Shown here one piece after another: positions 1-63,089 of a stretch of 64,000 bases of DNA (position 1 is the first letter of the stretch; every line of letters begins with the position of its first letter). The notes beneath the pieces are model-generated. The model saw only the letters and a program-made list of their open reading frames with translations. It was not told where the DNA came from and did no database searches. The position numbers were made by a program, and so were the translations under genes. The stretch lies in the NCBI RefSeq assembly GCF_011045215.1, contig NZ_CP049201.1; one strand, 5' to 3'. The DNA is from Escherichia coli (GTDB lineage Bacteria > Pseudomonadota > Gammaproteobacteria > Enterobacterales > Enterobacteriaceae).

Positions 1-209
1 TGAACAGGCTGATGGCATGGTTATCATCAAAACCAAGCTGATGGGTGAGATAGAGAATGAGTAAGGCACGCATGCCGTAAAAACTGAAGTACTCCCAGAT
101 TTGGATCGCCACGATATAGTATATCGCGCGCGGCTGTGAGGGTGTTTTCATGTGTTCTCCTTATGAGCAAAAAAGGGAAGTGGCAAGCCACTTCCCTTGT
201 ACGAGCTAA

Positions 210-2357
210 TTATTTTTTGCTTTCTTCTTTCAATACCTTAACGGTATAGCGGCCATCAGCCTGACGGTATGCACCGTGAATATCGGTTTCAAAGCCCGGA
301 TAGTGAGCGCCGATTTCACACAGCATCTGCAGGAACTCCAGAACCGGACGGCTTTCTTCGGTGATCATTTCACCCGGCATTACCAGAGGAACTCCCGGCG
401 GATATGGAAGGATCATATTGGCGTTAATACGACCTACCATTTCGTCGAGGTAAACTTCTTCGATCATACCGTGCAGCTCTTTCTGGAACGCAGCATACGG
501 AGTCATTACCATTGTCGGCAGCACTTCAAATGCGCGATACATCAGATCCGGCAGATTGTGGTGAACAATCCGTTTGTGGATATTCTGAGCCAGTTCCTGA
601 ATACGCATGTTTTCATAGAATTCAGGATCTTCACGATACAGAGACGGCAGCATGTTTTTCACACGCAGGTTCAGGTCGAACGCACGTTTGAAGTCAGTCA
701 GAGCACGCAGCAGGCTCAGTGCTTTGGTCTTATCGATACCGATGCTGAACAGGAACAGCAGGTTATACGGACCGGTTTTCTCAACAACGATGCCATGTTC
801 GTCGAGGTATTTCGCCACGATGCTGGCCGGAATACCAAAGTCGCTCATGGTGCCGTCTTTTTCCATCCCCGGAGTCAGCAGGGTGACTTTGATCGGGTCA
901 AGATACATGTGCTCGTTATCGATGTTTTTGAAGCCGTGCCAGGTGCTGTCAGAACGCAGCGGCCAGCATTCAGTCGTATCGATATGATCCGGCTGCCAAA
1001 CATCAAAGAACCAGCCATCAGATTCCGTTCTCAGACGTTTGATCTCTTTACGGAATTTGATCGCACGTTCAATGGAACCGTTGATCAGACGCTTACCAGC
1101 ATTACCTTTCATCATCGCCGCAGCGGTTTCAGTGGACGCCACGATACCGTAGTGTGGAGAAGTGGTGGTGTGCATCATGTAGGCTTCGTTAAAGGTTTCT
1201 TCGTTTACGTCACCTTTAACGTGGATCATGGAAGCCTGAGAGAACGCCGCCAGCAGTTTGTGAGTAGACTGGGTTTCGTAAATCACTTTCCCTTCTACAC
1301 GGCCACCGCTCATACCGCATTTACCTTCGTAAATCGGTGAGAAGTTGGTGTAAGGCACCCACGCGGAGTCAAAGTGGATGGATTTCACATCCAGTGTTTT
1401 CTTGATGAAGTCGGTGTTGTACAGCAGACCATCATAGGTAGAGTTAGTAATTACAGCATGTACCGGCCAGGTTGCGTTTGGTGTTTCCTTCACGCGCTTA
1501 GCAATGGTAGCGTGCTGGAATTCACTCTGTGGGATACCACCAAGAATACCGTAAGCGTTACGGGTCGGGCGGAAATAGATTGGCGTAACATCGCTCATCA
1601 TCATCAGGTGGGTCAGCGATTTGTGGCAGTTACGGTCAATCAGAATGGTGCTGCCTGCTGGAGCAGAGTACATACCAACAATTTTGTTCGCAGTGGAAGT
1701 ACCGTTGGTCACCATGTAGCTGCGGTCTGCGTTAAAGACGCGAGCGATATACTGTTCTGCTTCTTTGTGTGGACCACTGTGATCCAGCAGAGAACCCAGT
1801 TCAGATACTGAAATGGAAATATCAGATTTCATGGTATTCGGACCAAAGAAATCATAGAACAGGCTACCTACCGGGCTTTTCTGGAATGCAGTACCGCCCA
1901 TGTGACCAGGAGTACAGAAAGTATATTTACCTTCACGAACATATTTAAACAGTGCTTTAGTCAGCGGAGGCAGAATAGTGTTGATATATTCGTCAGTGGT
2001 CTGCTTGATCTTGTTAGCAATATCTTCAGCAGCACCTAGCGCATATTCAAAGAAGCTAATCTGTAAACGCAGGTCATTCAGGCTTACATCGAGAGTGGAA
2101 TACGTATTAGCGAACGCGTACAACGGCAGGTTCTCGTTCATTTTGCTAATTTCTTCGCACAGCTCGAGATTATATTTATCCCAGTCAAAAATAACGCCGC
2201 ACAGACGCGCATTGTTTTCGATCAGTTTTAATAAGTCGTCACGGTCGTTCGGGTAAACAATCTGGAAGTTCAGACGTTCAAGCGCGCGATGAAGTTCACG
2301 GATGGGTTCTTCTTTAAAATAAACCCCCATGTGATTCAATATTGCAATAACGTTCAT
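210..2357 (-). CDS. cadA: inducible lysine decarboxylase CadA (PLP-dependent)
   Basis: 715-aa ORF whose N-terminus MNVIAILNHMGVYFKEEPIRELHRALERLNF and overall sequence I recognise as E. coli CadA. GGAG sits 8 nt upstream of the ATG at 2357; the ORF-track start at 2396 is an upstream in-frame ATG adding 13 aa. Confidence 0.93.
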   Translation of the reverse strand: MNVIAILNHMGVYFKEEPIRELHRALERLNFQIVYPNDRDDLLKLIENNARLCGVIFDWDKYNLELCEEISKMNENLPLYAFANTYSTLDVSLNDLRLQISFFEYALGAAEDIANKIKQTTDEYINTILPPLTKALFKYVREGKYTFCTPGHMGGTAFQKSPVGSLFYDFFGPNTMKSDISISVSELGSLLDHSGPHKEAEQYIARVFNADRSYMVTNGTSTANKIVGMYSAPAGSTILIDRNCHKSLTHLMMMSDVTPIYFRPTRNAYGILGGIPQSEFQHATIAKRVKETPNATWPVHAVITNSTYDGLLYNTDFIKKTLDVKSIHFDSAWVPYTNFSPIYEGKCGMSGGRVEGKVIYETQSTHKLLAAFSQASMIHVKGDVNEETFNEAYMMHTTTSPHYGIVASTETAAAMMKGNAGKRLINGSIERAIKFRKEIKRLRTESDGWFFDVWQPDHIDTTECWPLRSDSTWHGFKNIDNEHMYLDPIKVTLLTPGMEKDGTMSDFGIPASIVAKYLDEHGIVVEKTGPYNLLFLFSIGIDKTKALSLLRALTDFKRAFDLNLRVKNMLPSLYREDPEFYENMRIQELAQNIHKRIVHHNLPDLMYRAFEVLPTMVMTPYAAFQKELHGMIEEVYLDEMVGRINANMILPYPPGVPLVMPGEMITEESRPVLEFLQMLCEIGAHYPGFETDIHGAYRQADGRYTVKVLKEESKK

Positions 2358-2436
2358 AGTCATATCTCCAGGTAAAAAAGGCCCCTCCCAACACATGGGA
2401 CAAAATGAAAGGAGGAGCCTCGGAAAATACTTTTAA

Positions 2437-3771
2437 TTAATGTGCGTTAGACGCTGTTTGGTTATCCATTGAGTGGCTCTGGCGCTCGTGCATTTTGCGA
2501 GCGTAGAACATCAGGATAATCAGGCTGACGATGAAGGTACCTGCCAGCTCGAAGGAGCTTGCGCCCATCAGCGCGATGAAGCAGAACACGCAACCCAGTA
2601 CAGAGCAGATCAGGCTGACAAAGTTGCGGATGTTAACGCCTTCAAAACGAATCAGGTCAACGCAAGAGTAGAAGTACGGCAGCATAGTCAGCAGTACTGC
2701 GATACCGGTCAGTTCACCGAACAGGTCAGATGCTTTACCACCGGCAGAGTTCATCAGAGTGATGAGGATCATCAGGGCAGTCATTTTCACTGCAGCCAGC
2801 AGCAGACCTTTTTTCGGAATACCGTTGCTGTCGACTTCACCATAAACTTTCGGGAAGTTACCGTCGTTAGCGGCACGTACACCTGCCTGGCCTACCAACA
2901 TCATCCAGGAGCCCAGAGAAGTCAGGCACGCAAAGGCGGTGAATGCAGAAACCAGCGGCGCAGCCCAGTTACCGAGGATAGTTGAAGCACTGATTGCAAA
3001 CGGAGCACCGGAAGCCGCCATTACAGAAGACGGATACATACCGGAAAGCACCTGAGTCGCAGCGATGTAAACAATACCTGCTAAACCAGTACCCAGCATG
3101 GTTGCCAGCGGAACGGTACGTTTCGGGTTTTTAACCATACCAGTACTTACAGCTGCGGATTCAACACCCACGAAGGCCCACAGGCAGAGCAGAATACTTT
3201 TAATGATCGCATGACCATCAGTGGTATCCGCAGTATTCCAGTTAGCTGCATAAGTTGCCGCATCAAACCAATGCCAGCCAACAATAGCAGTCATCACCAC
3301 AGGAATAAGAACCAGCACCAGACCAATAGTGGTTAAACGGCTTACCCAGGTACCGCCGAGCATATTTACAAAGGTAAATACCCAGACGATAGCAATACAG
3401 GCGATACCCGCCGGAACAGGATCATTTAATACTGGGAAGAAGGTGGAAAGATAAGATACAGCGGTAATACCAATCGCCAGGTTACCAATCCAGTTAGCAT
3501 GGTAATAAAGAACACCTGTCTGAAAACCAAATGCAGGGGAAATTTCTCCGGCATAAGCAATTGGGCCACCTTGTTGCGGGTTTTTTGTTGCCAGTCGGGC
3601 ATATACATACGCCAGCGACATTGCACCAATAATAGAGATAATCCAACCCCAGATAGCAATACCACCGATACTTGCTAGGTTCGCAGGTAATAATGCAATA
3701 CCGCTCCCCATCATATTACCGGCAACAACACCGGTACAGGCAAATAGCCCGATCTTCTTGGCAGAACTCAT
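2437..3771 (-). CDS. cadB: lysine/cadaverine antiporter CadB
   Basis: 444-aa polytopic membrane protein (MSSAKKIGLFACTGVVAGNMMGSGIALLPANLA...), APC-family permease, directly upstream of cadA in the canonical cadBA arrangement. AGGAG RBS before the ATG. Confidence 0.93.
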   Translation of the reverse strand: MSSAKKIGLFACTGVVAGNMMGSGIALLPANLASIGGIAIWGWIISIIGAMSLAYVYARLATKNPQQGGPIAYAGEISPAFGFQTGVLYYHANWIGNLAIGITAVSYLSTFFPVLNDPVPAGIACIAIVWVFTFVNMLGGTWVSRLTTIGLVLVLIPVVMTAIVGWHWFDAATYAANWNTADTTDGHAIIKSILLCLWAFVGVESAAVSTGMVKNPKRTVPLATMLGTGLAGIVYIAATQVLSGMYPSSVMAASGAPFAISASTILGNWAAPLVSAFTAFACLTSLGSWMMLVGQAGVRAANDGNFPKVYGEVDSNGIPKKGLLLAAVKMTALMILITLMNSAGGKASDLFGELTGIAVLLTMLPYFYSCVDLIRFEGVNIRNFVSLICSVLGCVFCFIALMGASSFELAGTFIVSLIILMFYARKMHERQSHSMDNQTASNAH

Positions 3772-4136
3772 GCTCTTCTCCTAATTTCATTTTTGAATTT
3801 GGAGTCCGGGTCATGATGTATAACTATTTCCTGACCAGACCAAACTGGCGATAAGATTACTCACGAAAAAAGGATTAATCCTAAAGATTAGGTGAAATAA
3901 CACAAAAGTTTCTGTAAGTGAGAACTTGAGGTTTTTTATTAACACATCAGGATCGCAAGTTGATATCATGAAAAGATAAACATTCAATGTTTACAATGGA
4001 TTGCGTGACATTGTCTGGTTAAATTTATGTAATAAAAATTATGCGGCAAATAAATTGCCGCAACATATTATACCAACAGGAACATACAAAAACTCAACAA
4101 CAAATATTCCCTGGCATGAATCAACCCGGGAGTTAC
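3772..4136 (-). promoter_or_regulatory. cadBA promoter/operator region (expected CadC-binding sites)
   Basis: 365-bp AT-rich intergenic region between cadC and cadB. From established knowledge this interval carries Pcad and the CadC target sites; individual sites were not mapped here. Confidence 0.45.
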
Positions 4137-5675
4137 TTATTCTGAAGCGAGAAATTTGTCGAGATAAGGTACAACATAAGGAACAGAAGTCTGGAATATA
4201 CCATTTTCAATCCAGTAAAGGGTGTTTGCCCCTGGGCGTAAATTAAAGGCGGTGAGATATGCATCAGCTGCTTCCCGATTCATCCCCTTCATTTCATAAA
4301 CCTTGCCAAGCAATACATAATTTAGCCAGGACATTTCAAGATCAATGCCAGTATTTATCGCCTGGTAAGACTCATCTGTTTTACCTTTTACCAGAGCACT
4401 GACCGCTTTTATTTGATATATAATGGACAGGTTATTCAATTCCGGTAGTGTAACAATGTTATCTATTTCTGTGTTCAGTGCTGCTAATTGTTTTTCATCT
4501 AAAGGATGTTGAGAATGGCGCACGATATCAACTAATGCTTTTTCTGCTCTCGCGTAGGTAAATTCTGGAGATGATTGAACAATCTCACCTAATAATTCAC
4601 TGGCACGGTTCAATGATTTATCATCGCCATGCAGTAAATAATCATGTGCCTGATAAAAATTAGTTAATAACGCACCACGATGAGGCAAAATTTGCTGGAG
4701 CGTCTCCTGCATTCGTTGTGGCCACGGTTGGTTTAACGCTTTTGATAAACTCTCCAGTAAATCATTTTGAATCGCCAGCTGATTACCGTTAGTGATGACA
4801 TAACGTTTATCCAGCATGGTTGAACCATCTGCATTGTCTACCAATTTTATCGACATAAAGCATTGTTGAGCACGGTATTGGCGCTGATTAACAAACGCAA
4901 TAGATAATGTTTTACCGGAACTGCTCGGTTCATCAATGTTGTAGTTGATTTTGTCATGCACCATAAAGGTGGAGAAGGTGTTAAGTGATGTCGCCACCAA
5001 ATCACCCACGCCTATCGCGTAAGAGAGCTGATACGGGGAACTCCAGCTGTTACAACTTTTATTTACCATATTAATGTCAATATCGCGTGGATTGAGCAAA
5101 ATACGCGATTTGCTCATCGGAAGACGTGTATCAAGACTTGAAAACGCTACCAGTGCTACACAGATACCTAAGGACAACAGGAAAAAAAACCATACCCAAA
5201 AGGTAGTGAATCGTTTGCTTTTAACTGGGGATTGTTCAGGTGGCGTTGCGGTGTTTTGAATGTTAAGGCTGTGGGAGGGAGAATCTGTGGCAGGAACCGC
5301 CTCTGGTATAGGGGGAGGCGAAGATAGCATTATTTCCTCTCCCTCTTCTTCGCTGTACCAGATAACCGGCACCATTAATTTATAGCCGCGCTTTGGTACA
5401 GTAGCGATATAGACAGGACTATCTTCATCATTATCTTTTAATGACTTACGTAGTTCTGAGATACTCTGCGTCACAACGTGATTGGTGACAATACTTCTCT
5501 TCCAGACATTATCGATAAGTTCATCCCTGCTAAGTACTTCGCCACTGTGTTGAGCAAAGAAAACCAGAAGATCGATTAATCTCGGCTCAAGGGTAAGTTG
5601 ACGCCCATTGCGGCTAATTTGGTTTATGGACGGAGTAACAAGCCATTCGCCAACGCGAACTACAGGTTGTTGCAT
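4137..5675 (-). CDS. cadC: ToxR-like membrane-integrated transcriptional activator CadC
   Basis: 512-aa ORF with an N-terminal winged-helix DNA-binding region (MQQPVVRVGEWLVTPSINQISRNGRQLTLEPRLIDLL), a central TM segment (FWVWFFFLLSLGICVALVAF) and a periplasmic sensor domain; matches E. coli CadC. Confidence 0.93.
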   Translation of the reverse strand: MQQPVVRVGEWLVTPSINQISRNGRQLTLEPRLIDLLVFFAQHSGEVLSRDELIDNVWKRSIVTNHVVTQSISELRKSLKDNDEDSPVYIATVPKRGYKLMVPVIWYSEEEGEEIMLSSPPPIPEAVPATDSPSHSLNIQNTATPPEQSPVKSKRFTTFWVWFFFLLSLGICVALVAFSSLDTRLPMSKSRILLNPRDIDINMVNKSCNSWSSPYQLSYAIGVGDLVATSLNTFSTFMVHDKINYNIDEPSSSGKTLSIAFVNQRQYRAQQCFMSIKLVDNADGSTMLDKRYVITNGNQLAIQNDLLESLSKALNQPWPQRMQETLQQILPHRGALLTNFYQAHDYLLHGDDKSLNRASELLGEIVQSSPEFTYARAEKALVDIVRHSQHPLDEKQLAALNTEIDNIVTLPELNNLSIIYQIKAVSALVKGKTDESYQAINTGIDLEMSWLNYVLLGKVYEMKGMNREAADAYLTAFNLRPGANTLYWIENGIFQTSVPYVVPYLDKFLASE

Positions 5676-8445: not shown

Positions 8446-8649
8446 GTTTTTTCCTTACTAAGTCAGAGTGTTATGAATATAAAGATGCTGTCCGTACCTT
8501 CTGACCGGGGTCGCCAAACTTGCCGGTCTGAAAACGTACAGACAGTTACCGGGATTTTACTCCCGACAGCTGTACGTCCGGCACCCTTTTTTCTTTTTTT
8601 ACATAGTCCGGTTTCTGGCCCTGTGGGTCGGTATACCTGTTCCCGTTAA
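8446..8649. repeat. copy A of a ~200-bp repeated divergent-promoter module
   Basis: Near-identical to 9440-9660 and 10561-10750. Conserved core tgctgtccgtaccttctgaccgggg..ccggtctgaaaacgtacagacagttaccgggatttta.tcccgacagctgtacgtccggcaccc with internal inverted repeats (CTGTCCGTAC/GTACrGACAG; ACAGCTGT). Confidence 0.8.
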
Positions 8650-8667
8650 ATGAGAAGGAGTGGAATC

Positions 8668-9165
8668 ATGAACCGTAATCCGTCTGAAAATCTGTCTGAA
8701 AACGCGTCCCGCCAGTTCCTGTCCCTGGCCTCGCCAGCAGAGGCTGCATGCCATGCACTGCTTCGTTTCATTGAACGTGAGATTCTTGAGAAAAATGCGC
8801 CTGAAGAGCAGGTCCGGGAACGTTGCAGGGTATTCACCACACTGCTTAATGAGGGATTTACTGCCCTGTCTGATAAGGCTGGGCAGAATTTAGCTGACCT
8901 CCGGGAACAGTGCCGGCAACTGGAGCATCACATCACCAGACTTGGAGATGAATGCAACGATGTTAATCGCAGAAGCGCAGAGATTACCCGCAACATCAAT
9001 CGGGCTTTCGATATGAACATAGCGCTTGATATTGCCAGTCGGTCATATAATTCAACGCCTTCTGGCTCGTCCAGTACTCACTCCAGTAGTCCGTCAGAGC
9101 AAGAGATATCTCAGCAGGTGTCATCTGCTCAACCGTTGCCGGGAGCCAGTGATGCTGATGAATAA
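8668..9165 (+). CDS. hypothetical protein (165 aa), Ser-rich acidic C-terminus
   Basis: Strong RBS (gagaAGGAGtggaatcATG). Downstream of repeat copy A. Confidence 0.5.
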   Translation: MNRNPSENLSENASRQFLSLASPAEAACHALLRFIEREILEKNAPEEQVRERCRVFTTLLNEGFTALSDKAGQNLADLREQCRQLEHHITRLGDECNDVNRRSAEITRNINRAFDMNIALDIASRSYNSTPSGSSSTHSSSPSEQEISQQVSSAQPLPGASDADE

Positions 9166-9439
9166 GCGCAAACTTAACGGCTTCCGGAATGCTGATGAAG
9201 CCATCATCCCGGAAAAACCAGTGGCGGCTGTGAATCAGCCAGTGTCTGAGCCAGCAGAGTCGGTAGGCGAGCTTATGGTCTGCGCCGGGAAAGATTTCAG
9301 TTCCCTGGTCAAAGAAGGTTTTACAACGTTCCACATCGTCGGGGGCCATGCGTCCGGCTTTCCAGTCTTCAAAGTATTTTTCATTGCTGTCAGTGACATA
9401 AGGACAGTTGTTATCAATGCCGGACGGCAGTTGTTTTTC
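8996..9439 (-). pseudogene. paralog of the MNT..QLPSGID leader gene with ATG replaced by ATA at the conserved start
   Basis: Conserved RBS AAAGGAG is followed by ATAAATACAGAAAAACAACTGCCGTCCGGCATTGAT (INTEKQLPSGID) where copies A and C have ATG. The reading frame stays open to 8996; an internal ATG at 9349 may still give a 117-aa product. Confidence 0.3.
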
Positions 9440-9675
9440 TGTATTTATAAAAATTCTCCTTTAAAACAATCTGTTATGAGTATGCGAATGCTGTCCGTAC
9501 CTTCTGACCGGGGTTGCCAGACTTGCCGGTCTGAAAACGTACAGACAGTTACCGGGATTTTATTCCCGACAGCTGTACGTCCGGCACCCTTTTTCCTTTT
9601 TTTACACAGCCAGGTTTCCGGTTATCTGCGGGGAAGTGACGCACCTGGCGGGCTGAGAGATATGGAGGTGAAAGT
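9420..9675. repeat. copy B of the ~200-bp repeated divergent-promoter module
   Basis: Direct alignment with copies A and C (seen in sequence). Confidence 0.8.
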
Positions 9676-10413
9676 ATGTCTTCCTCAGTGAAATATTCTC
9701 CGGTTCCGGCGGTCTTAACCCGCCCTGAATCGCTGGCTGAACTGAACCTGCTGATGACCCGGATTGCCAGTGGGTGTCGTGTGGGGCTTCCGGCGTCAGG
9801 TCGTCCGGTCATTGCGGTGCACGGTGGTTATGTTTCATACAGTTCTCCACGCACCGGACATGTTTTTCAGGACGGTTTCCGCCCGGAGACAGTGATGACC
9901 GTCAGTAACCGGGAACGGATGTGTGAATGGTTCAGTCAGGTCTGGCTTCCGTTGCATCTGGCTGCCCTTGAAGGCGATGAGAACGCTTTTTTCAGTGCGG
10001 AGGTCAACATGGTGCGCCGGGAGCTGCAGCGCGTTCCGGGGGATTCAGTGAACTGCATGTGCTGGGCAAGCCTTGCTGCACTGGCATTTGATGCTGAAGA
10101 GCGGGTGGAACGGCAGAAAGGCAATAATGAGAACATCGCAACATATGATGAGAGCATCGCGACATATGCATTCCGTGCTGCCTGCACTGTGAGTCGCTGT
10201 CTGAGCCGGAATGCTTCCGGAGGTATTCCGCGCTCATACCCTGAATGGAAAGCGATTTTGTTTCCCCGTGATGGTGCTGACATTTTCCCCGACGGGTGGC
10301 TGGAAAATATGACCCGTCGGGCTGAACGTGTTTTTACGAGTGCGAAACGTCAGTGTGGAATGCTCTCAGCCAGTCAGGCAGCGCTTTTTTCTCAACGTGT
10401 TGAAACGGAGTAA
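9676..10413 (+). CDS. hypothetical protein (245 aa)
   Basis: Strong RBS (GGAGGTGaaagtATG). Downstream of repeat copy B. Confidence 0.5.
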   Translation: MSSSVKYSPVPAVLTRPESLAELNLLMTRIASGCRVGLPASGRPVIAVHGGYVSYSSPRTGHVFQDGFRPETVMTVSNRERMCEWFSQVWLPLHLAALEGDENAFFSAEVNMVRRELQRVPGDSVNCMCWASLAALAFDAEERVERQKGNNENIATYDESIATYAFRAACTVSRCLSRNASGGIPRSYPEWKAILFPRDGADIFPDGWLENMTRRAERVFTSAKRQCGMLSASQAALFSQRVETE

Positions 10414-10564
10414 AAGGATGAGCCGATTCAATACAGTTCGGGGGAAAGGGGTTACAGAGCCCGTCTTTTTCCGTCATGACCTTTCCGTTACTCAACAGCC
10501 AGAACTGCAGGGGGTATTTCACTTCAGATTCAATGCCGGACGGCAGTTGTTTTTCTGTATTCAT
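10334..10564 (-). CDS. hypothetical small protein (76 aa), third MNTEKQLPSGIE paralog
   Basis: RBS AAAGGA and conserved N-terminal codons inside repeat copy C. Its 3' end overlaps the plus-strand gene 9676..10413 by 80 bp, so one of the two calls may be wrong. Confidence 0.3.
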   Translation of the reverse strand: MNTEKQLPSGIESEVKYPLQFWLLSNGKVMTEKDGLCNPFPPNCIESAHPFTPFQHVEKKALPDWLRAFHTDVSHS

Positions 10565-10760
10565 AAATTTTTTCCTTTAAAACAACTTGTTATGAATGAA
10601 CGAATGCTGTCCGTATCTTCTGACCGGGGGCGGCAAACTCACCGGTCTGAAAACGTACGGACAGTTACCGGGATTTTATTCCCGACAACTGTACGTCCGG
10701 CACCCTTTTTCCTTTTTTCACATAGCCAGGTTTCCGGCAGTCAGAGGGGGAGGGGACACC
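10545..10760. repeat. copy C of the ~200-bp repeated divergent-promoter module
   Basis: Direct alignment with copies A and B; lies immediately upstream of the helicase gene. Confidence 0.8.
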
Positions 10761-22248: not shown

Positions 22249-22312
22249 TTCCGGGTTGACTTTCCATGGATGTGTTTTAAAAATAACCGGGCTTATTTGC
22301 TGCATCTGCAGC

Positions 22313-22496
22313 CAGCCAATGTTTCAGCAGTCTGAGAGAAACGCCTTCGGGTGACTGCCAGCCAACGTTTCACCGGCCTGAGAGAAACACCTTCGGGTGG
22401 CCGGAATATCCTCGTAGCCTGAAAGAGGATGCCTGTGGGCGGTACATCCGTTTAACCTCTGGAAACGGATATCACTGTTCAGTGATTGAGGTCTTT
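22313..22496 (+). ncRNA. structured repeat element R1 (two pseudoknot-like units plus terminal hairpin domain); candidate sRNA or single-strand structural element
   Basis: Units CCAGCCAAyGTTTCa-stem-TGAGAGAAACrCCTTCGGGTG-stem, then ..GGTACATCCGTTTAACCTCTGGAAACGGATATCACTGTTCAGTGATTGAGGTC followed by TTTTT. Homologous to R2 and R3 with compensatory stem changes. Confidence 0.45.
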
Positions 22497-52772: not shown

Positions 52773-52914
52773 ATAATTAATTTGTATCTACAGAATATTA
52801 ATGCTCAGGCTGGTTAACCCCGGCCTTTTTATTTTATATACAGACGTTCCTGTGAGACTATTGACATATAAAAGCCCGTCTTGCTAATCTTTTCCCGCTT
52901 TAATGTCGCTGTAT

Positions 52915-53101
52915 GCGACCATCCAAATCCCCAGTAGTCTGAGAGGGGAGCCTTCGGGCGGCTACCAGCCAATGCTTTAACGATCTGAGAGAAGCGCCTT
53001 CGGGTGATCGTAATGTTCTCGTAGCCTGGAAGAGAACGCCTTACGTGGCGGTACATCCGTTTAACCTCTGGGAACGGATATCACGGAACCGTGATTGAGG
53101 T
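52915..53101 (+). ncRNA. structured repeat element R2 (homolog of R1 and R3)
   Basis: Same unit architecture as R1 with compensatory stem substitutions (TCCCC/GGGGA in place of GTTTC/GAAAC; ACGATC/GATCGT in place of GCAGTC/GACTGC) and the conserved 3' domain GGTACATCCGTTTAACCTCTGGGAACGGATATCACGGAACCGTGATTGAGGTC. Confidence 0.45.
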
Positions 53102-53763
53102 CGTGCTGGCCTGAGGCCAGTTGTTCTATGCAGGCATCCTGCAGATGCCATGATTCTTTACTTACAGGCTTATCACGCCTGCATATCAATACGTTAAGTC
53201 TTTCAGAGACATGTCTGAACGAACTGACGTCTTTAATCTGTTCGGGCATTCGCCCCGGGCTTCTTACGACTGTACGCACTGCATAAGGCCATCTGAAATC
53301 TGGCCGCTTGCGTGCGTATGTGGAGTTTGAAGCTGCGCGGCGTCACTTTTGTCGGCGTGTAACGATGACAAAGTGACGCATGCGCGTCTGCTTTACGAAC
53401 CCGCACAAACCGTCGCGTCACGGGATGTTTTTTAACATTTGAAGAAGTGACCAGACGTGAGAGTGTTTTTTCAACCTTCTCTGCAAACGTACAGACGATA
53501 CCGTGAATAACGTTCATCGACCGTTCTTCTTGCAGAATTTTATTGTTTTTTAAGGAGTTTTATGTAGTGAGATGCCGAACCGGCGATACCACTTATTAGG
53601 GGTGGTATCGGGGGCGACCTGGAAACAGGTACAGCGAATGCTGCAGTCGGTGTGCAACACCGGTTTGTTACCCCTCAATACCTAAACAGTCTGCGCTACC
53701 CTGGCGCTCAGGCACTCATTACCCGAAGGATCGCAACGCTTAACCGTGTCGCCAGGGAGAATG

Positions 53764-53812
53764 CAGATGAATTTTGCTGTTGTGTTCACGGCACAACAGC
53801 AAAATTCATCTG
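53764..53812. promoter_or_regulatory. perfect 21-7-21 palindrome upstream of the recombinase gene (candidate operator or recombination site)
   Basis: CAGATGAATTTTGCTGTTGTG-ttcacgg-CACAACAGCAAAATTCATCTG, followed directly by the 14-bp palindrome GCTGTACGTACAGC at 53812-53825, 25 bp upstream of the GAGGAGG RBS. Confidence 0.5.
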
Positions 53813-53850
53813 CTGTACGTACAGCTGTTTAAGACAAAGAGGAGGTATCT

Positions 53851-54753
53851 GTGTCCAGACGTGAAAAATTACTGAAACAGGATTTGGTTGCTCATATCCG
53901 GAAAGACCGGGGGAGTTTCAAGAAGCTGAGTGACTATTCCCGGATCATGCACCGGTTTGCGGAAAGACTGGCTAAACTGAATATACAGATCAGTTCTGCT
54001 GCGCAGGTAAAAGTGCGGCATATTGAATTATATATGAACAGCAGGAGTGATGTTTCAAAGCGAACCAGAGAAAATGAAATGTCTGCAATACGGGTTATGT
54101 TACGTCAGGCCGGTAAACATAAAATGGCAGATCCTGAACATCCCCGTCTCAGCAATAAGGCGTTAGGTATTTCAGGAGGAAGCCGTAAAGGGACAAAGAA
54201 ATTAATTACGGATGAGCGTTTCCGGGAAATTCTTCAGCGCGTGGAAGCAAAAGATAAAGGGGTGGCAGCTGTTGTTAAACTGTCACGTTATCTCGGTCTG
54301 AGAAATGAAGAAGCTGTCCAGTCGGCCAAATCGTTACGGACGTGGAAAAAAGCGTTACAACGGGGAGATGAAAAAATAAGGGTGATTTTTGGTACGAAAG
54401 GGGGACGGGAAAGAATGACGACGGTTGTTGACCGGGATAAAGTTCTTGATGCTGTTAATTACGCACTCAAATATGCCAGTGAGCATAATGAACGTCTGAT
54501 AGACAGAGATAATCTTAAGTCGGCAATGGATTATTATCTTAATACGTTACGACGTTATGGAGAACTGAAAGGCGGAGATGAAACCGCACACAGTTTTCGG
54601 TACAGTTACGCCGCAAGTGCCATGAAATATCATATTATGAATGGTTACAGTTATAAGGAGGCACTTGCACTGACATCAATTGATCTTGGTCATGGTGATG
54701 GCAGAGGTCGATATATTGAACAGGTTTATTGTCAGTTATTAGGCTATGAGTAA
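53851..54753 (+). CDS. tyrosine site-specific recombinase (phage-integrase/Xer-like catalytic domain)
   Basis: GTG start with GAGGAGG RBS. Catalytic-domain boxes: LSRYLGLRNEEAVQ (box I Arg), HSFRYSYAASAM (H-x-x-R), GHGDGRGRYIEQVY (catalytic Tyr). Confidence 0.65.
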   Translation: MSRREKLLKQDLVAHIRKDRGSFKKLSDYSRIMHRFAERLAKLNIQISSAAQVKVRHIELYMNSRSDVSKRTRENEMSAIRVMLRQAGKHKMADPEHPRLSNKALGISGGSRKGTKKLITDERFREILQRVEAKDKGVAAVVKLSRYLGLRNEEAVQSAKSLRTWKKALQRGDEKIRVIFGTKGGRERMTTVVDRDKVLDAVNYALKYASEHNERLIDRDNLKSAMDYYLNTLRRYGELKGGDETAHSFRYSYAASAMKYHIMNGYSYKEALALTSIDLGHGDGRGRYIEQVYCQLLGYE

Positions 54754-54785: not shown

Positions 54786-55109
54786 ATGGATTGTACTATT
54801 TTAATGAAAATAATCTCTGTAAAGGAGATTACAAAAGATTCGCCTTTGTGGTCACACTACCTGGTGCGATATATTGATTCCGGATATCAGGCTGAGTTTG
54901 AATGTGAAGGAACAGCAGATAAATGGGGCATCTATGATGAATGGGACATCTGTGAGTCGATTGCGGATTATTTTGACGTGGTGGGAGATTTTGACTGTGA
55001 TGTCAGACGGACGGGAAGAATAATACTGATGAAAGGTACCTGTGTTTTTCCTCCAGGAGAACCGGTTAAGGGAACACATAATATTCCTTTTTGGATCGAT
55101 GTTGAATAG
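54786..55109 (+). CDS. small strongly acidic protein (107 aa); candidate DNA-mimic or anti-restriction-like protein
   Basis: Very high Asp/Glu content (for example DEWDICESIADYFDVVGDFDCD); AT-rich codon usage. Confidence 0.4.
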   Translation: MDCTILMKIISVKEITKDSPLWSHYLVRYIDSGYQAEFECEGTADKWGIYDEWDICESIADYFDVVGDFDCDVRRTGRIILMKGTCVFPPGEPVKGTHNIPFWIDVE

Positions 55110-55157
55110 CTTGACATCCATCTTTTGTGCCTTAAAAATATACAGGCTAACTTTGTT

Positions 55158-55414
55158 ACCTTCGGGTGACCATCCAATGTTTCGGTAGTCTGAGAGAAAC
55201 GCCTTCGGGTGACTACAGTTATCTTCGGATAACCATCCAAATCCCCGGTAGTCTGAGAGGGGAGCCTTCGGGCGACTACCAGCCAATGCTTTGACGATCT
55301 GAGAAAAGCGCCTTCGGGTGATCGTAATGTCTCCGTAGCCTGAAAGGGGACGCCTTAGAGGGTGGTACATCCGTTTAACCTCTGGAAACGGATATCACGG
55401 AACAGTGATCGAGG
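55158..55414 (+). ncRNA. structured repeat element R3 (three units plus terminal domain)
   Basis: Largest copy: a partial unit, then GTAGTC/GACTAC, GGTAGTC/GACTACC and ACGATC/GATCGT units, and the conserved 3' domain ending ..GATCGAGGTC followed by TTTTAT. Confidence 0.45.
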
Positions 55415-55488
55415 TCTTTTATACTTAACCCGTGCGGGAGATACATTCCCGTATGGTGATTGTATCTCCGGTTTTACTGTGGAGGTAC

Positions 55489-60863: not shown

Positions 60864-63089
60864 ATGTCTAAGCCGGAAAACGGCCAACAGCTGCCCGCCA
60901 TCTGTTGGCCGGTGCCTAAAAATAACCGGGGCGGGGAGTTCAGTAATCTCGAGGAGATGTTGGCGCATCTGGAGGGCGAGGCCACCGGGCACTGGCTGAT
61001 TGGCCGTAATGGTATGTGGCACGGGGGAATTCATATCACGGATATCACGACTCCGTGGTGTGCGCTCAGCGGTCAGTCGATGAATGAGGCGGTGGATTTT
61101 CCTGTGCCGTTTAAGGGAGAGCAGCCCGTGCGCTGCATGGCGGATGGTGAGGTGGTGGCGTACCGGATAAACCGGGATTCTCTCAGCGTGCCGTGGTACT
61201 GGGGGGATTTACACTACTCCGGGTCTTTTGTACTCATTCGCCATCGTATTCAGCCAGGGGAAACGGCAGAGAGCGGGCTGACCTTTTACACCCTGTATAT
61301 GCACCTCGCGCCCTGGCTGGCTTACCCGGAGCAGGACAGTACGGCGTTTAAGGTCGCAGACAGACAGTATCTGAATGCGTATGCGGACGCGTCCCGGCAG
61401 TGGGTGGTGGCAGAGTTGCCACCCGGTACACGTGTGATATGGGACAAAGCGGTAAGTGCAGACACCATGACAGGGAGCAACGGTCGGCAGTATGCGCGCG
61501 TTACGCTGGCGGAGCCGGTGACGGGCAGGATGAACCTGAACGCCGGAGACCGGGTATGGACAGTATGCGATAAAGGGAATCTGGTTCCGGTTCGTGACAG
61601 TATCATCCGTCCGGCGTGGTGGTCGCCGTTCCTGCCGCCGTCACGCGAAACGGTACAGTTTGATACGGTGGTGTGTCCGACACCTTACCCGATTAAAGCC
61701 GGTGCCCCGGTGGGGCATCTGGGCTATTTTCAGGTACCCACGGATAACGGGCATGAAAAACGCTATCAGGTGCATATCGAATGCCTGACAACGGACGACC
61801 TGCCGCGCTTCCTGAGCAACCCGGAAGGTGTGGGGCGTGACACTCCCGCCTTTGCCCGTTGTCCGAAGGATATACCGGTGTATCTGAAATATACGGACGG
61901 AGAAATACACAAGAGCCTGGTAACCACGGAGAGCGAAACGGTGATGGCGCTGTCAGGTCAGGTGGTGACGGACAAAGAGGGTAAACGCTACTGGTCGGGG
62001 GGAGGGGTATCACGCGGACTGCTGGCGGAGTCAGATGTGCAGTTGTTATCCAGGTATGACCTGGCTGACCGGGGTTTTGAGGCCACGGAGGATAACCCGG
62101 TGAGCTTTGACCATCTCGACGGAAAGAGACAGCCGAAGGGGCTGGTGAGGACGATTTTTGAGCGTTTTTTCAACGTGGCGGATAATGACGGTAAGCTCTA
62201 CAGCAAAATAGTGGCATTCAACTACCGGCAGCTGCTGGACCAGATTGATGACGCCAAATCCCCCCGGTATAACCCGGAACTGTACCGGCGCGCGGTACAG
62301 AACCCGTCAATGCGTGAGCATCTGTATCGTTTGTGCGTGAAACATCCCAGCGAGTGGTATTACTCGTCGGAGTCTTCGGTATGGAAAGCATTTTTTACGC
62401 CCCAACTGAAAAGAGACGCCACGGAGTGGTACGCCTACAGTATGAAATTTTTGACGGATCTCCGCTGGATGTACCGTGTGGCCGGAATGGTGGAAAATCC
62501 GTGGCATATGCACCCACTGGTATTTCTTGATGCTATTAATGATATAGGTATGACTCTCGATGAAGCCAGAGTTCGGGCATTTATGAGAATGATTCGAGTT
62601 GGCGAAGGGACTGTTGGTGAGGTTGGGTATGAAACATTGTTTGGTAAGCAGTCATTCATAAAAGATTATCATAAAGATTTTAGTGATCACCCGAACATAA
62701 TAATTACTAGAGGTACATTAAAGTCTTCTGCGGCTGGAGCATATCAAGTAATGGGTTATACATGGAATGATCCTAACATGTTGTTTTATCGCAAAAAATA
62801 TGGGATCGTGGATTTTTCTCCGAAATCACAAGATGAGTTTTGTGTGCTAATCCTTAAATATAAAAGGAAAGGGGCTTTAAAACTTATCATTGATGGTGAC
62901 ATTGATGGGGCTTTAGATATTTTGAGTTACGAATGGGCAAGTCTTCCCCCTGCCAGATACCCTCAACCAACCAAGAGTAAGAGTGAGGTTATGTCCTTAT
63001 ACAATAAGTATTTATTAGAAGAGCTCTTAGGGGAGACAGATCTTCACCTGCCAATCGGCTACATAAAACAAGTTTATAATGGTGTGTAA
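60864..63089 (+). CDS. two-part protein (741 aa): GC-rich N-terminal region fused to an AT-rich C-terminal lambda-lysozyme-R-like lytic transglycosylase domain; candidate peptidoglycan-targeting toxin or bacteriocin
   Basis: The C-terminal ~170 aa align with recalled phage lambda R: GEGT (catalytic Glu), FSDHP, KSSAAGAYQ, DFSPKSQD, KGALKLIIDGDIDGALD, WASLP. Base composition changes sharply near 62550. The N-terminus has HxH-type motifs (WHGGIHIT; YMHL) of uncertain meaning. Confidence 0.6.
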   Translation: MSKPENGQQLPAICWPVPKNNRGGEFSNLEEMLAHLEGEATGHWLIGRNGMWHGGIHITDITTPWCALSGQSMNEAVDFPVPFKGEQPVRCMADGEVVAYRINRDSLSVPWYWGDLHYSGSFVLIRHRIQPGETAESGLTFYTLYMHLAPWLAYPEQDSTAFKVADRQYLNAYADASRQWVVAELPPGTRVIWDKAVSADTMTGSNGRQYARVTLAEPVTGRMNLNAGDRVWTVCDKGNLVPVRDSIIRPAWWSPFLPPSRETVQFDTVVCPTPYPIKAGAPVGHLGYFQVPTDNGHEKRYQVHIECLTTDDLPRFLSNPEGVGRDTPAFARCPKDIPVYLKYTDGEIHKSLVTTESETVMALSGQVVTDKEGKRYWSGGGVSRGLLAESDVQLLSRYDLADRGFEATEDNPVSFDHLDGKRQPKGLVRTIFERFFNVADNDGKLYSKIVAFNYRQLLDQIDDAKSPRYNPELYRRAVQNPSMREHLYRLCVKHPSEWYYSSESSVWKAFFTPQLKRDATEWYAYSMKFLTDLRWMYRVAGMVENPWHMHPLVFLDAINDIGMTLDEARVRAFMRMIRVGEGTVGEVGYETLFGKQSFIKDYHKDFSDHPNIIITRGTLKSSAAGAYQVMGYTWNDPNMLFYRKKYGIVDFSPKSQDEFCVLILKYKRKGALKLIIDGDIDGALDILSYEWASLPPARYPQPTKSKSEVMSLYNKYLLEELLGETDLHLPIGYIKQVYNGV

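Follow-up and report, generated by a model that had tools for sequence, protein, structure and literature searches.

A probable MOB_M-type relaxase gene and its structured STAXI–EFASI leader in an integrative and conjugative element of Escherichia coli

Results

The gene, its leader and the fold of its product

The DNA analysed here (the window) is a 64,000-nucleotide stretch of an Escherichia coli genome (RefSeq assembly GCF_011045215.1, contig NZ_CP049201.1). It carries an integrative and conjugative element (ICE) of the SPI-7/PAPI-1/ICEclc-like, MPF_G type, whose backbone starts with ParA ~6.4 kb into the window. The subject of this work is a gene of this element for a 300-aa protein with a tyrosine-recombinase fold, which is probably a MOB_M-type atypical relaxase, together with the leader of ~950 nt that precedes it (Table 1). 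The leader was conserved across Enterobacterales in the order promoter, STAXI, hairpin H2, EFASI, variable stem-loop and Shine-Dalgarno sequence. The region was 98% identical to chromosomal islands in many E. coli strains, and it was compared with 80 loci taken from a single genome for each species and with a further 10 from closer relatives.

Table 1. Positions of the features at the relaxase-like gene in the window
Feature	Position	Strand	Basis
Intrinsic-terminator-like hairpin and T-run closing the upstream DUF2726 gene unit	52807..52826	+	consensus scan
Sigma-70-like promoter candidate TTGACA-18-TAATCT, 43 nt 5' of STAXI	52861..52890	+	read from sequence
STAXI RNA (Rfam RF01728), 5' portion of the leader	52904..53057	+	109.7 bits (gathering score 40.5)
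Two terminator-like hairpins just 3' of STAXI	53105..53149	+	terminator scan
Hairpin H1, GGCCA-loop-TGGCC	53287..53305	+	covarying stem across genera
Hairpin H2, 9-bp arms GCGTCACTT/AAGTGACGC, bulge, covarying apical stem	53340..53379	+	alignment
EFASI RNA (Rfam RF02957)	53564..53721	+	55.0 bits (gathering score 51.2), full-length model
EFASI-extending helix, arms 53699-53706 / 53750-53757	53699..53757	+	conserved block 53721-53760
22-7-22 palindrome; lineage-variable RNA stem-loop between EFASI and ribosome binding site	53763..53813	+	perfect pairing, covariation
14-bp palindrome GCTGTACGTACAGC; not conserved, probably incidental	53812..53825	.	
Shine-Dalgarno AGGAGG, 5 nt 5' of GTG	53840..53845	+	read from sequence
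Gene for 300-aa tyrosine-recombinase-fold protein (PF12834 and PF12835), GTG start; probably MOB_M-type atypical relaxase	53851..54753	+	
107-aa open reading frame 3' of the relaxase-like gene; variable, no MpsB homologue	54786..55109	+	family and MpsB comparison
Next promoter TTGACA-17-AAAAAT and STAXI copy, opening the following transcription unit	55111..55325	+	

A preliminary description of the window had read the gene product as a 300-aa tyrosine recombinase with a box I arginine, H-x-x-R and tyrosine motifs, and the open reading frame (ORF), fold and catalytic set were all confirmed. The protein matched PF12835 ('Integrase_1', E 1.6e-53) and PF12834 (E 9.3e-23) in Pfam, and alignment of 21 homologues (53-95% identity) showed R151 (GLRxEE), K183 (GTKGGR), H247-x-x-R250, H281, Y288 and Y293 to be invariant. 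Either Y288 or Y293 would be the nucleophile, both being candidates in this alignment. An AlphaFold model built on the 21 homologues (pLDDT 89.7) resembled XerA, lambda Int, XerH, Tn1549 Int and Cre on Foldseek comparison (E 2e-5 to 1e-3). Searched by sequence against the PDB, the protein gave chance matches only, and no NCBIfam or PHROGs match was obtained. In its modelled two-domain fold and its catalytic set the protein is a member of the tyrosine recombinase superfamily.

Assignment to the MOB_M relaxases

Within this superfamily the protein is probably a MOB_M-type atypical relaxase, an assignment based on PF12835, on identity to a seed of the MOB_M profile, on similarity to MpsA and on the gene neighbourhood. 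PF12835 is the signature (INT_DTR_like) by which a genomic-island classifier recognizes the MpsA-type atypical relaxase of SGI1 (PMC10484663). Over its full length the window protein was 53% identical to WP_033567157.1, an 'integrase domain-containing protein' of the SGI-4 ICE (pSGI4), which is a seed of the MOB_M relaxase profile (bioRxiv 10.64898/2026.01.13.699239). MOB_M relaxases (TcpM, MobK, MpsA) were described in 2026 as the commonest relaxases in the chromosomes of the focal species of that study (bioRxiv 10.64898/2026.01.13.699239).

SGI1 DNA was recovered from one Salmonella contig via the published oriT (origin of transfer) sequence; the oriT-SGI1 sequence was absent from the E. coli genomes searched. 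The best Pfam match of SGI1 MpsA was PF12835 (E 1.1e-10). BLASTP aligned MpsA with the window protein at 28% identity over 145 aa (E 1e-5), a segment spanning the GLRxEE and GTKGGRxR motifs, and hhalign gave a probability of 86% (E 4.8e-6).

The neighbourhood was also that of a MOB_M gene, which lay after the TraG end of the MPF_G operon and had a conserved non-coding leader of ~1 kb on its 5' side. In the annotated relative NZ_CP062204 the order began with ParA, DnaB-PI and ParB, then topoisomerase III, an STY4534-family protein and Ssb, continued with TIGR037xx ICE mating-pair genes, TraD, the conjugative ATPase, a TraG-N protein and a DUF2726 protein, and ended with a gap of ~1 kb, an 'integrase domain-containing protein', small hypothetical proteins, DUF1281 and an N6-methylase. 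Since this order was conserved there and in related loci, the gene belongs to the ICE backbone, where it is flanked by the TraG end of the mating-pair operon on one side and by anti-restriction-type genes on the other, and not to the cargo in which it had first been placed. The upstream DNA very probably holds the target of the protein, as the preliminary description had supposed; the recombinase role that it gave the protein was not supported, the family now being treated as MOB_M relaxases.

STAXI, EFASI and the organization of the leader

The region upstream of the gene had been described as non-coding and rich in inverted repeats, and in nine related loci gene callers likewise left a gap of ~1 kb before the gene. 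ORFs within the leader were rejected as genes, for their similarity merely tracked nucleotide conservation and they were not conserved as proteins; a minus-strand ORF of 94 aa showed 71% identity where the relaxase-like protein had 95%.

The window held two further STAXI matches, at 22298-22448 (135.2 bits) and 55154-55279 (85.8 bits). A TTGAC(A/T) box stood 42-43 nt before all three copies (22256-22261, 52861-52866 and 55111-55116), and terminators preceded two of the three, the arrangement of terminator and then promoter being seen also before the STAXI at 22298. STAXI therefore looks like the 5' leader of transcription units; the three units that it heads are those of STY4534/ssb, of the relaxase-like gene and of the small genes that follow. 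The STAXI model consists of tandem pseudoknot units with UUCG loops (Weinberg et al. 2010, PMC2864571). The conserved tail of the copy before the relaxase-like gene reached ~53102 and recurred at 55232-55416 with 91% identity. By analogy with a terminator-like inverted repeat of SGI1 (see below), the two terminator-like hairpins just beyond it could possibly be a place where the primary transcript is attenuated or processed.

The name EFASI is short for 'Enterobacteriaceae, Frequently Around STAXI and Integrases'; the order given in Rfam is STAXI, a few hundred nucleotides, EFASI and an integrase gene (PMC12370729). Rfam assigns no function to either motif, and transcripts of both have been detected (PMC4710047; PMC12370729). 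With the Rfam models, EFASI was found 5' of the gene in all 11 of the 11 homologous loci tested (57-96 bits), and the order with respect to STAXI was likewise confirmed. Counted from the start codon, STAXI lay 750-950 nt upstream and EFASI 110-290 nt upstream in most collected loci. The inverted repeat noticed earlier near 53575-53615 was real, its arms CGATACCAC (53584-53592) and GTGGTATCG (53602-53610) being a helix of the EFASI match. A sequence AAGGAG, 4 nt and ATG TAG (53552-53567), resembling a ribosome binding site with a start-stop, spans the 5' edge of that match at 53564.

Conservation profiling showed that the conserved leader exceeds the Rfam models, with H1, H2, the helix 3' of EFASI and the terminal stem-loop all outside them. 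The helix extending EFASI covaried with CCCCGATG/CGTCGGGG in other genera, including a U-G wobble on the + strand. The H1 stem was GGCCA/TGGCC, TGCCA/TGGCA, AGCCA/TGGCT or GCCCA/TGGGC according to genus, with the loop TTTGGNACATT in most relatives. A scan for sigma-70 promoters found no strong promoter between STAXI and the gene. On single-sequence folding both strands folded equally well (z -7.0 and -8.7), so that folding of single strands could not tell them apart. A guide-RNA-like pairing of the leader with the palindrome arms or a nearby target was considered and discarded, only chance 9-12-mers being found.

Hairpin H2

The preliminary description had also noted an inverted repeat near 53340-53390, and GCGTCACTTTTGTC..GACAAAGTGACGC was found at 53340-53379 with a 1-nt bulge. 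Across the diverse enterobacterial loci aligned, the arms of this hairpin, H2, did not vary (38 of 38); the tenth pair covaried (GC in 25, UA in 8). H2 was present in 78 of about 90 loci, 320-560 nt 5' of the start codon, with the consensus GCGTCACTK...MAGTGACGC; in pSGI4 (CP061046) it lay at 2495-2534 with a U-G wobble. It was single-copy within the window, and no Rfam family covered it when the window and distant leaders were scanned.

Its conservation crossed bacterial classes. H2 preceded homologues of only ~25-38% identity on plasmids of Burkholderia, Paraburkholderia and Caballeronia (270-355 nt upstream), on Thiothrix pTunz2 (474 nt upstream, 11-6-11) and on Vibrio pSIO1 (563 nt upstream, 10-7-10). 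The distance between the arms varied from 6 to 22 nt among loci, indicating a conserved intramolecular duplex rather than a duplex core site of fixed spacing. By these properties and by its position, H2 is the best candidate for the oriT core, as a recognition or nick hairpin. None of the sources consulted describes this cross-class hairpin. The oriT of SGI-4 was reportedly localized by Neupane et al. (DNA Res 2025).

The palindrome between EFASI and the ribosome binding site

A perfect 21-7-21 palindrome had been reported before the gene. It proved to be 22-7-22, with arms at 53763-53784 and 53792-53813, and none was expected in shuffled sequences. Relatives at 95, 85, 82, 70 and 69% protein identity had the same 22-bp helix and kept the TTCACGG loop, with compensatory changes in eight of the 22 pairs and 97.7% of cells paired; slid registers paired 33-55%. 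A second clade (Trabulsiella, Pectobacterium, Brenneria, Erwinia, Hafnia, Yersinia) had a helix of 19 bp with the loop TCACNCNG, in which 10 of 19 pairs were compensatory and all cells (100%) paired. Wobbles were all of the G(5')-U(3') kind on the + strand, accounting for five of seven columns in which the arms were asymmetric, besides one C-A cell, and the loop was more conserved than the arms. These observations fit a base-paired element of the + strand that is variable in length and conserved as a helix, not as a sequence.

The palindrome did not accompany the gene throughout. It was reduced to 5-11 bp or missing in many clades in which the catalytic residues were intact, among them the closest relatives at 60-73% (loci L003, L004, L086, L089 and L090). 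Where present, the stem-loop lay constantly 9-49 nt before the start codon and never covered the Shine-Dalgarno sequence.

The palindrome was not reported by the terminator scan; its stem is A+U-rich, is followed by CUGUACGUACAG and has no U-tract. An intrinsic (Rho-independent) terminator was rejected on these grounds (no G+C-rich stem, no U-run), and a sigma-70 promoter at the palindrome was rejected after the scan found none. A pseudoknot between loop and leader (CACGG/CCGUG) was rejected likewise, as it was not kept with the TCACACAG and TCACGCAG loops. The palindrome is probably a 3'-end-forming or RNase-processing hairpin of the leader RNA.

A second copy of the palindrome, which a recombination site would call for, was found neither in the window (up to 3 mismatches) nor within ~6 kb at 19 homologous loci. 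E. coli genomes showed two places per record, as a self-complementary single site would give; the second place was not inspected.

The 14-bp palindrome GCTGTACGTACAGC just before the ribosome binding site was confirmed at 53812-53825. It was lost in the relative with 95% protein identity (L091, CCGAACGTACAGC) and also in L003 and L004. The motif CTGTACGT does recur at 8446-10760, as had been pointed out, and occurred nine times in all (1.1 expected). Five of the nine belonged to a single repeat module that is present three times, and two more were both strands of the 14-bp palindrome; because these matches are not independent and the palindrome is not conserved, the shared regulator suggested from the recurrence is unsupported. 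The module itself, of ~170 nt, has three copies (8446-8620, 9450-9625 and 10570-10745), each with AATGCCGGACGGCAGTTGTT, an imperfect hairpin AAAACGTACAGACAGTTACCGGGATTTTAYTCCCGACAGCTGTACGTCCGGCACCC and a T-rich run. The copies are on the dnaB-PI side of the ICE, each of them 5' of an ORF, and none matched Rfam at gathering scores.

Comparison with SGI1

The mobilization module of SGI1 comprises the promoter P5, oriT-SGI1, sgm-sRNA, a hairpin, mpsA and mpsB (Kiss et al. 2019, PMC6414798; Nagy et al. 2021, PMC9299015). P5 (ttgacg-16-taatat) drives a primary RNA of 650-700 nt in the direction of mpsA through oriT, and a terminator-like inverted repeat lies 66 nt after its start site (PMC9299015). 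The 3' part of this RNA matures to sgm-sRNA, which is needed in trans for transfer; RNA 3' ends cluster near the hairpin by the mpsA start codon, which the authors regarded as a terminator or an RNase site (PMC9299015). Only a very weak promoter lies within ~100 bp of the mpsA start codon, and expression of the relaxase gene is independent of the upstream RNA (PMC9299015). In oriT-SGI1 the GC-rich 7-bp inverted repeat IR1 is essential (PMC6414798).

As shown in Table 2, the window has corresponding elements in the same order. Both loci have a PF12835 protein of tyrosine-recombinase fold that acts, or is here proposed to act, as a relaxase, and a long non-coding region read in the direction of the gene from a sigma-70 promoter (in the window a candidate) ~0.8-1 kb upstream. 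Both have, 300-500 nt upstream of the start codon, a GC-rich inverted repeat (essential in SGI1), a structured RNA core between this repeat and the gene, and a stem-loop right 5' of the start codon, where the SGI1 RNA ends. H2 thus has the relative position of IR1. The promoter candidate, with its weak -10 box, would be the positional analogue of P5 and the start of a long primary transcript.

Table 2. Distances before the start codon in SGI1 and in the window
Element	SGI1	Window
Promoter	781 nt	990 nt
IR1 / H2	328 nt	511 nt
RNA core (sgm / EFASI plus helix)	306-97 nt	287-91 nt
Hairpin	43-17 nt	88-38 nt

The two loci also differ. The SGI1 hairpin is an imperfect repeat of 9 bp, compared with 22 bp in the window, and IR1 (CGCGCAC-5-GTGCGCG) differs from H2. 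In SGI1 mpsB follows mpsA, whereas no MpsB homologue follows the window gene. SGI1 is a mobilizable island dependent on IncC plasmids, whereas the ICE in the window has its own MPF_G system.

In the sgm-sRNA region of SGI1 (L108, ~2905-2868 and 3000-2965, minus strand), CCAGCCAAUG is followed by a hairpin, and there are two hairpins with UUCG loops, CCGCCUUCGGCGG and GCGCGCUUCGCGC. Such words are typical of STAXI units, though the Rfam STAXI model had no match there.

Comparison with other systems and distant plasmid homologues

SGI-4 resembled the window in its neighbours and leader, with TraG-side genes upstream, ArdC, DUF1281 and an N6-methylase downstream, and the same leader of STAXI, H2 and EFASI; its terminal stem-loop is of ~9 bp, not 22 bp. 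MobK nicks its oriT, the intergenic region before mobK, in a tyrosine- and Mg2+-dependent manner (PMC8152469). Like the window, MobK with the oriT of pIGRK and TcpM with that of pCW3 combine a tyrosine-recombinase-like protein with a repeat-rich intergenic oriT just 5' of its gene (PMC8152469). They differ in being systems of small plasmids with no RNA component reported, and they were likened to the window by description, not by sequence.

The Xer/dif, Cre/loxP and IntI/attC systems share with the window the protein fold and inverted arms around a centre of 6-8 nt, and H2 of Thiothrix and of pSIO1 is dif-like in its geometry. They differ in that the palindrome arms vary and no partner site was found, and in the 6-22 nt spacing of H2. 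As to attC, the palindrome conserves its loop rather than the base of its stem, and it has no extrahelical bases.

The homologues of ~25-38% identity were carried on small plasmids. Vibrio paracholerae pSIO1 (L101, 4906 bp) has four genes, for a PF12834-type homologue, a coupling protein and two small ORFs, with neither an annotated replication protein nor a canonical relaxase. Rfam scans found no EFASI-like RNA in the leaders of beta-proteobacteria, Thiothrix and Vibrio, in which only a loose CCUCAAC-like word was seen. On distant plasmids an ORF of ~70-120 aa overlapped, or directly followed, the 3' end of the relaxase-like gene (L097, 2228-2467; L100, 1038-1298; L104, 2387-2623; L101, 2814-3035; L099, 2340-2630; L102, 1041-1403), which recalls mpsB after mpsA. 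In enterobacterial ICEs, by contrast, the ORF after this gene was variable.

Flanking genes and element ends

The 107-aa ORF that follows the gene in the window was kept only in the nearest relatives (87% and 46% identity); it had no NCBIfam or PHROGs match and no similarity to MpsB. The window showed no canonical relaxase. An ORF of 741 aa at 60864-63089, 3' of the methylase gene, had no NCBIfam match and was not the MOB_H TraI that might be expected.

At its left end the window holds chromosomal cadA, cadB and cadC (1-5675), whereas in strain C311 the same ICE adjoins gsp type II secretion genes, so that the element sits at different chromosomal sites. In the Trabulsiella locus (L020), matches to the small RNA STnc100 of Rfam at 1971-2156 (-) and 4320-4514 (+) flank the module.

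Discussion

A proposed mobilization module

We favour, with moderate confidence, the interpretation that the locus is the MOB_M mobilization module of an ICE of SPI-7/SGI-4 type (MPF_G), made up of a relaxase, an oriT at H2, an RNA running from STAXI to EFASI and a palindrome bounding this RNA. MpsA, MobK and TcpM are relaxases, sgm-sRNA is required for transfer of SGI1, and the oriT of MOB_M systems lies 5' of the gene (PMC9299015; PMC8152469; bioRxiv 10.64898/2026.01.13.699239). On this model the protein, in spite of its tyrosine-recombinase fold, would nick the oriT of the element instead of recombining two sites. The oriT would lie in the non-coding DNA between the mating-pair operon and the gene, with H2 as its recognition or nick element. 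A promoter at ~52861 would give rise to a long structured RNA with STAXI, H1, H2 and EFASI, the 3' part of which (EFASI and the additional helix) may be released as a small RNA needed in trans for conjugative transfer, by analogy with SGI1. The palindrome would fold in the + strand RNA and mark its 3' boundary, as a site of termination or of RNase cleavage; a perfect helix of two turns would suit RNase III. It would thereby part the RNA from a weakly expressed relaxase message that starts, or continues, downstream.

A more specific proposal, which we put forward tentatively and hold to be possible, is that STAXI, EFASI, H1 and H2 form one primary transcript over the MOB_M oriT in enterobacterial ICEs and islands, in which EFASI would be the counterpart of sgm-sRNA, as an obligatory or physical RNA of the relaxosome, and H2 the recognition or nick hairpin of the family.

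Several points weigh against the module interpretation. Relaxase activity is known only for distant relatives of the protein, and its similarity to MpsA is weak. The EFASI and STAXI models of Rfam had no match in the SGI1 leader and mob region at E <= 10, so that the link between EFASI and sgm-sRNA is one of position and not of homology. H2 resembles IR1 of SGI1 only loosely (GCGTCAC vs GCGCAC), and an invariant duplex sequence such as that of H2 is more typical of DNA recognition, which has no bearing on the palindrome. Simple intrinsic termination at the palindrome is unlikely given its lack of a U-tract, and RNase III cleavage there is a guess. Some homologues have rep and par genes as neighbours on small non-mobilizable plasmids, where multimer resolution would also fit. 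Elements of the SPI-7/ICEclc type usually also encode a MOB_H TraI, in a part of the element that is outside the window.

Alternative interpretations

Among the alternatives, the palindrome might be a purely cis-acting element in the 5' untranslated region of the relaxase/integrase mRNA, stabilizing it, modulating its translation or serving as an RNase III site, with no separate small RNA. Its constant position, its covariation on the + strand, the lack of a U-tract and the lack of a strong promoter between STAXI and the gene would all suit such an element. We nevertheless hold it to be unlikely, as the Shine-Dalgarno sequence is not sequestered, the palindrome is lost while the gene stays, and in SGI1 relaxase-gene expression does not depend on the upstream RNA, whose 3' ends cluster at the equivalent hairpin. 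It overlaps with the module interpretation and is not exclusive of it.

The palindrome and H2 might, alternatively, act as hairpins in the single-stranded DNA of the transferred strand, as a single-strand origin, a priming signal or a folded enzyme substrate like those of attC or CTX phage. This was raised by those who described STAXI (PMC2864571), and single-strand origins can be present on ICEs. A perfect Watson-Crick stem will fold whichever strand it is on, and the invariant stem of H2 with its 6-22 nt spacing fits recognition of an intramolecular DNA duplex; such an interpretation weighs most for H2, since an invariant stem sequence suggests DNA recognition. We think it improbable nonetheless. 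The UUCG loops of STAXI favour RNA, transcripts have been detected and each STAXI copy has a promoter 42-43 nt upstream. The wobbles agree with the sense strand, which would require the coding strand to be the one transferred; some homologues with H2 are found on small plasmids classed as non-mobilizable; and the equivalent region of SGI1 works as a trans-acting RNA.

It is highly improbable that the protein actively carries out site-specific recombination, for instance as a multimer resolvase acting on the excised circular form of the ICE, with the palindrome as a core site with a 7-bp crossover or, as also suggested in the preliminary description, as a cassette-capture site. The full catalytic set and the fold agree with such an enzyme, a spacer of 7-8 nt is the geometry of lox, FRT and dif, recombinase genes in general often adjoin their own sites, distant homologues occur beside rep and par genes on small plasmids, and symmetric protein-binding sites may mimic covariation. 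Against this, the arms differ already at 95% protein identity and vary with compensation also at 85 and 70%, and symmetry over all 19-22 bp exceeds the footprint of any monomer. The arm-asymmetry columns are mostly (five of seven) G-T on the + strand, the loop is more conserved than the arms, and most clades, though their catalytic residues are intact, lack a long palindrome. Neither the window nor the 6 kb around homologues held a partner site, and the documented members of the family are relaxases.

An operator for a dimeric transcription factor, at the palindrome or the adjacent GCTGTACGTACAGC and shared with the CTGTACGT modules at 8446-10760, or the autoregulatory operator first envisaged, is scarcely credible, for despite the excess of CTGTACGT and the position of both palindromes just 5' of the gene, seven of the nine matches are non-independent, the 14-bp palindrome is not kept at 95% protein identity, and the 22-bp arms, changing freely with compensation and G-U wobbles on the + strand and lost in many relatives, are unlike an operator.

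Significance

Systems of the kind proposed are known from SGI1 (2019, 2021), from the oriT of SGI-4 (2025) and from the MOB_M survey (2026). In a literature search we found no published link of STAXI and EFASI to MOB_M modules, nor to sgm-sRNA. The module interpretation suggests a concrete role for these two orphan motifs, described in 2010 and 2017 respectively. It also nominates the 40-nt H2, with its invariant 9-bp stem, as the oriT core of the family, which could reveal mobilizable islands that carry an oriT only. MOB_M relaxases, reportedly the commonest in enterobacterial chromosomes, are still annotated as integrases; on a correct reading, the transfer of a widespread ICE family of E. 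coli and Salmonella is attributed to a different gene and to different DNA.

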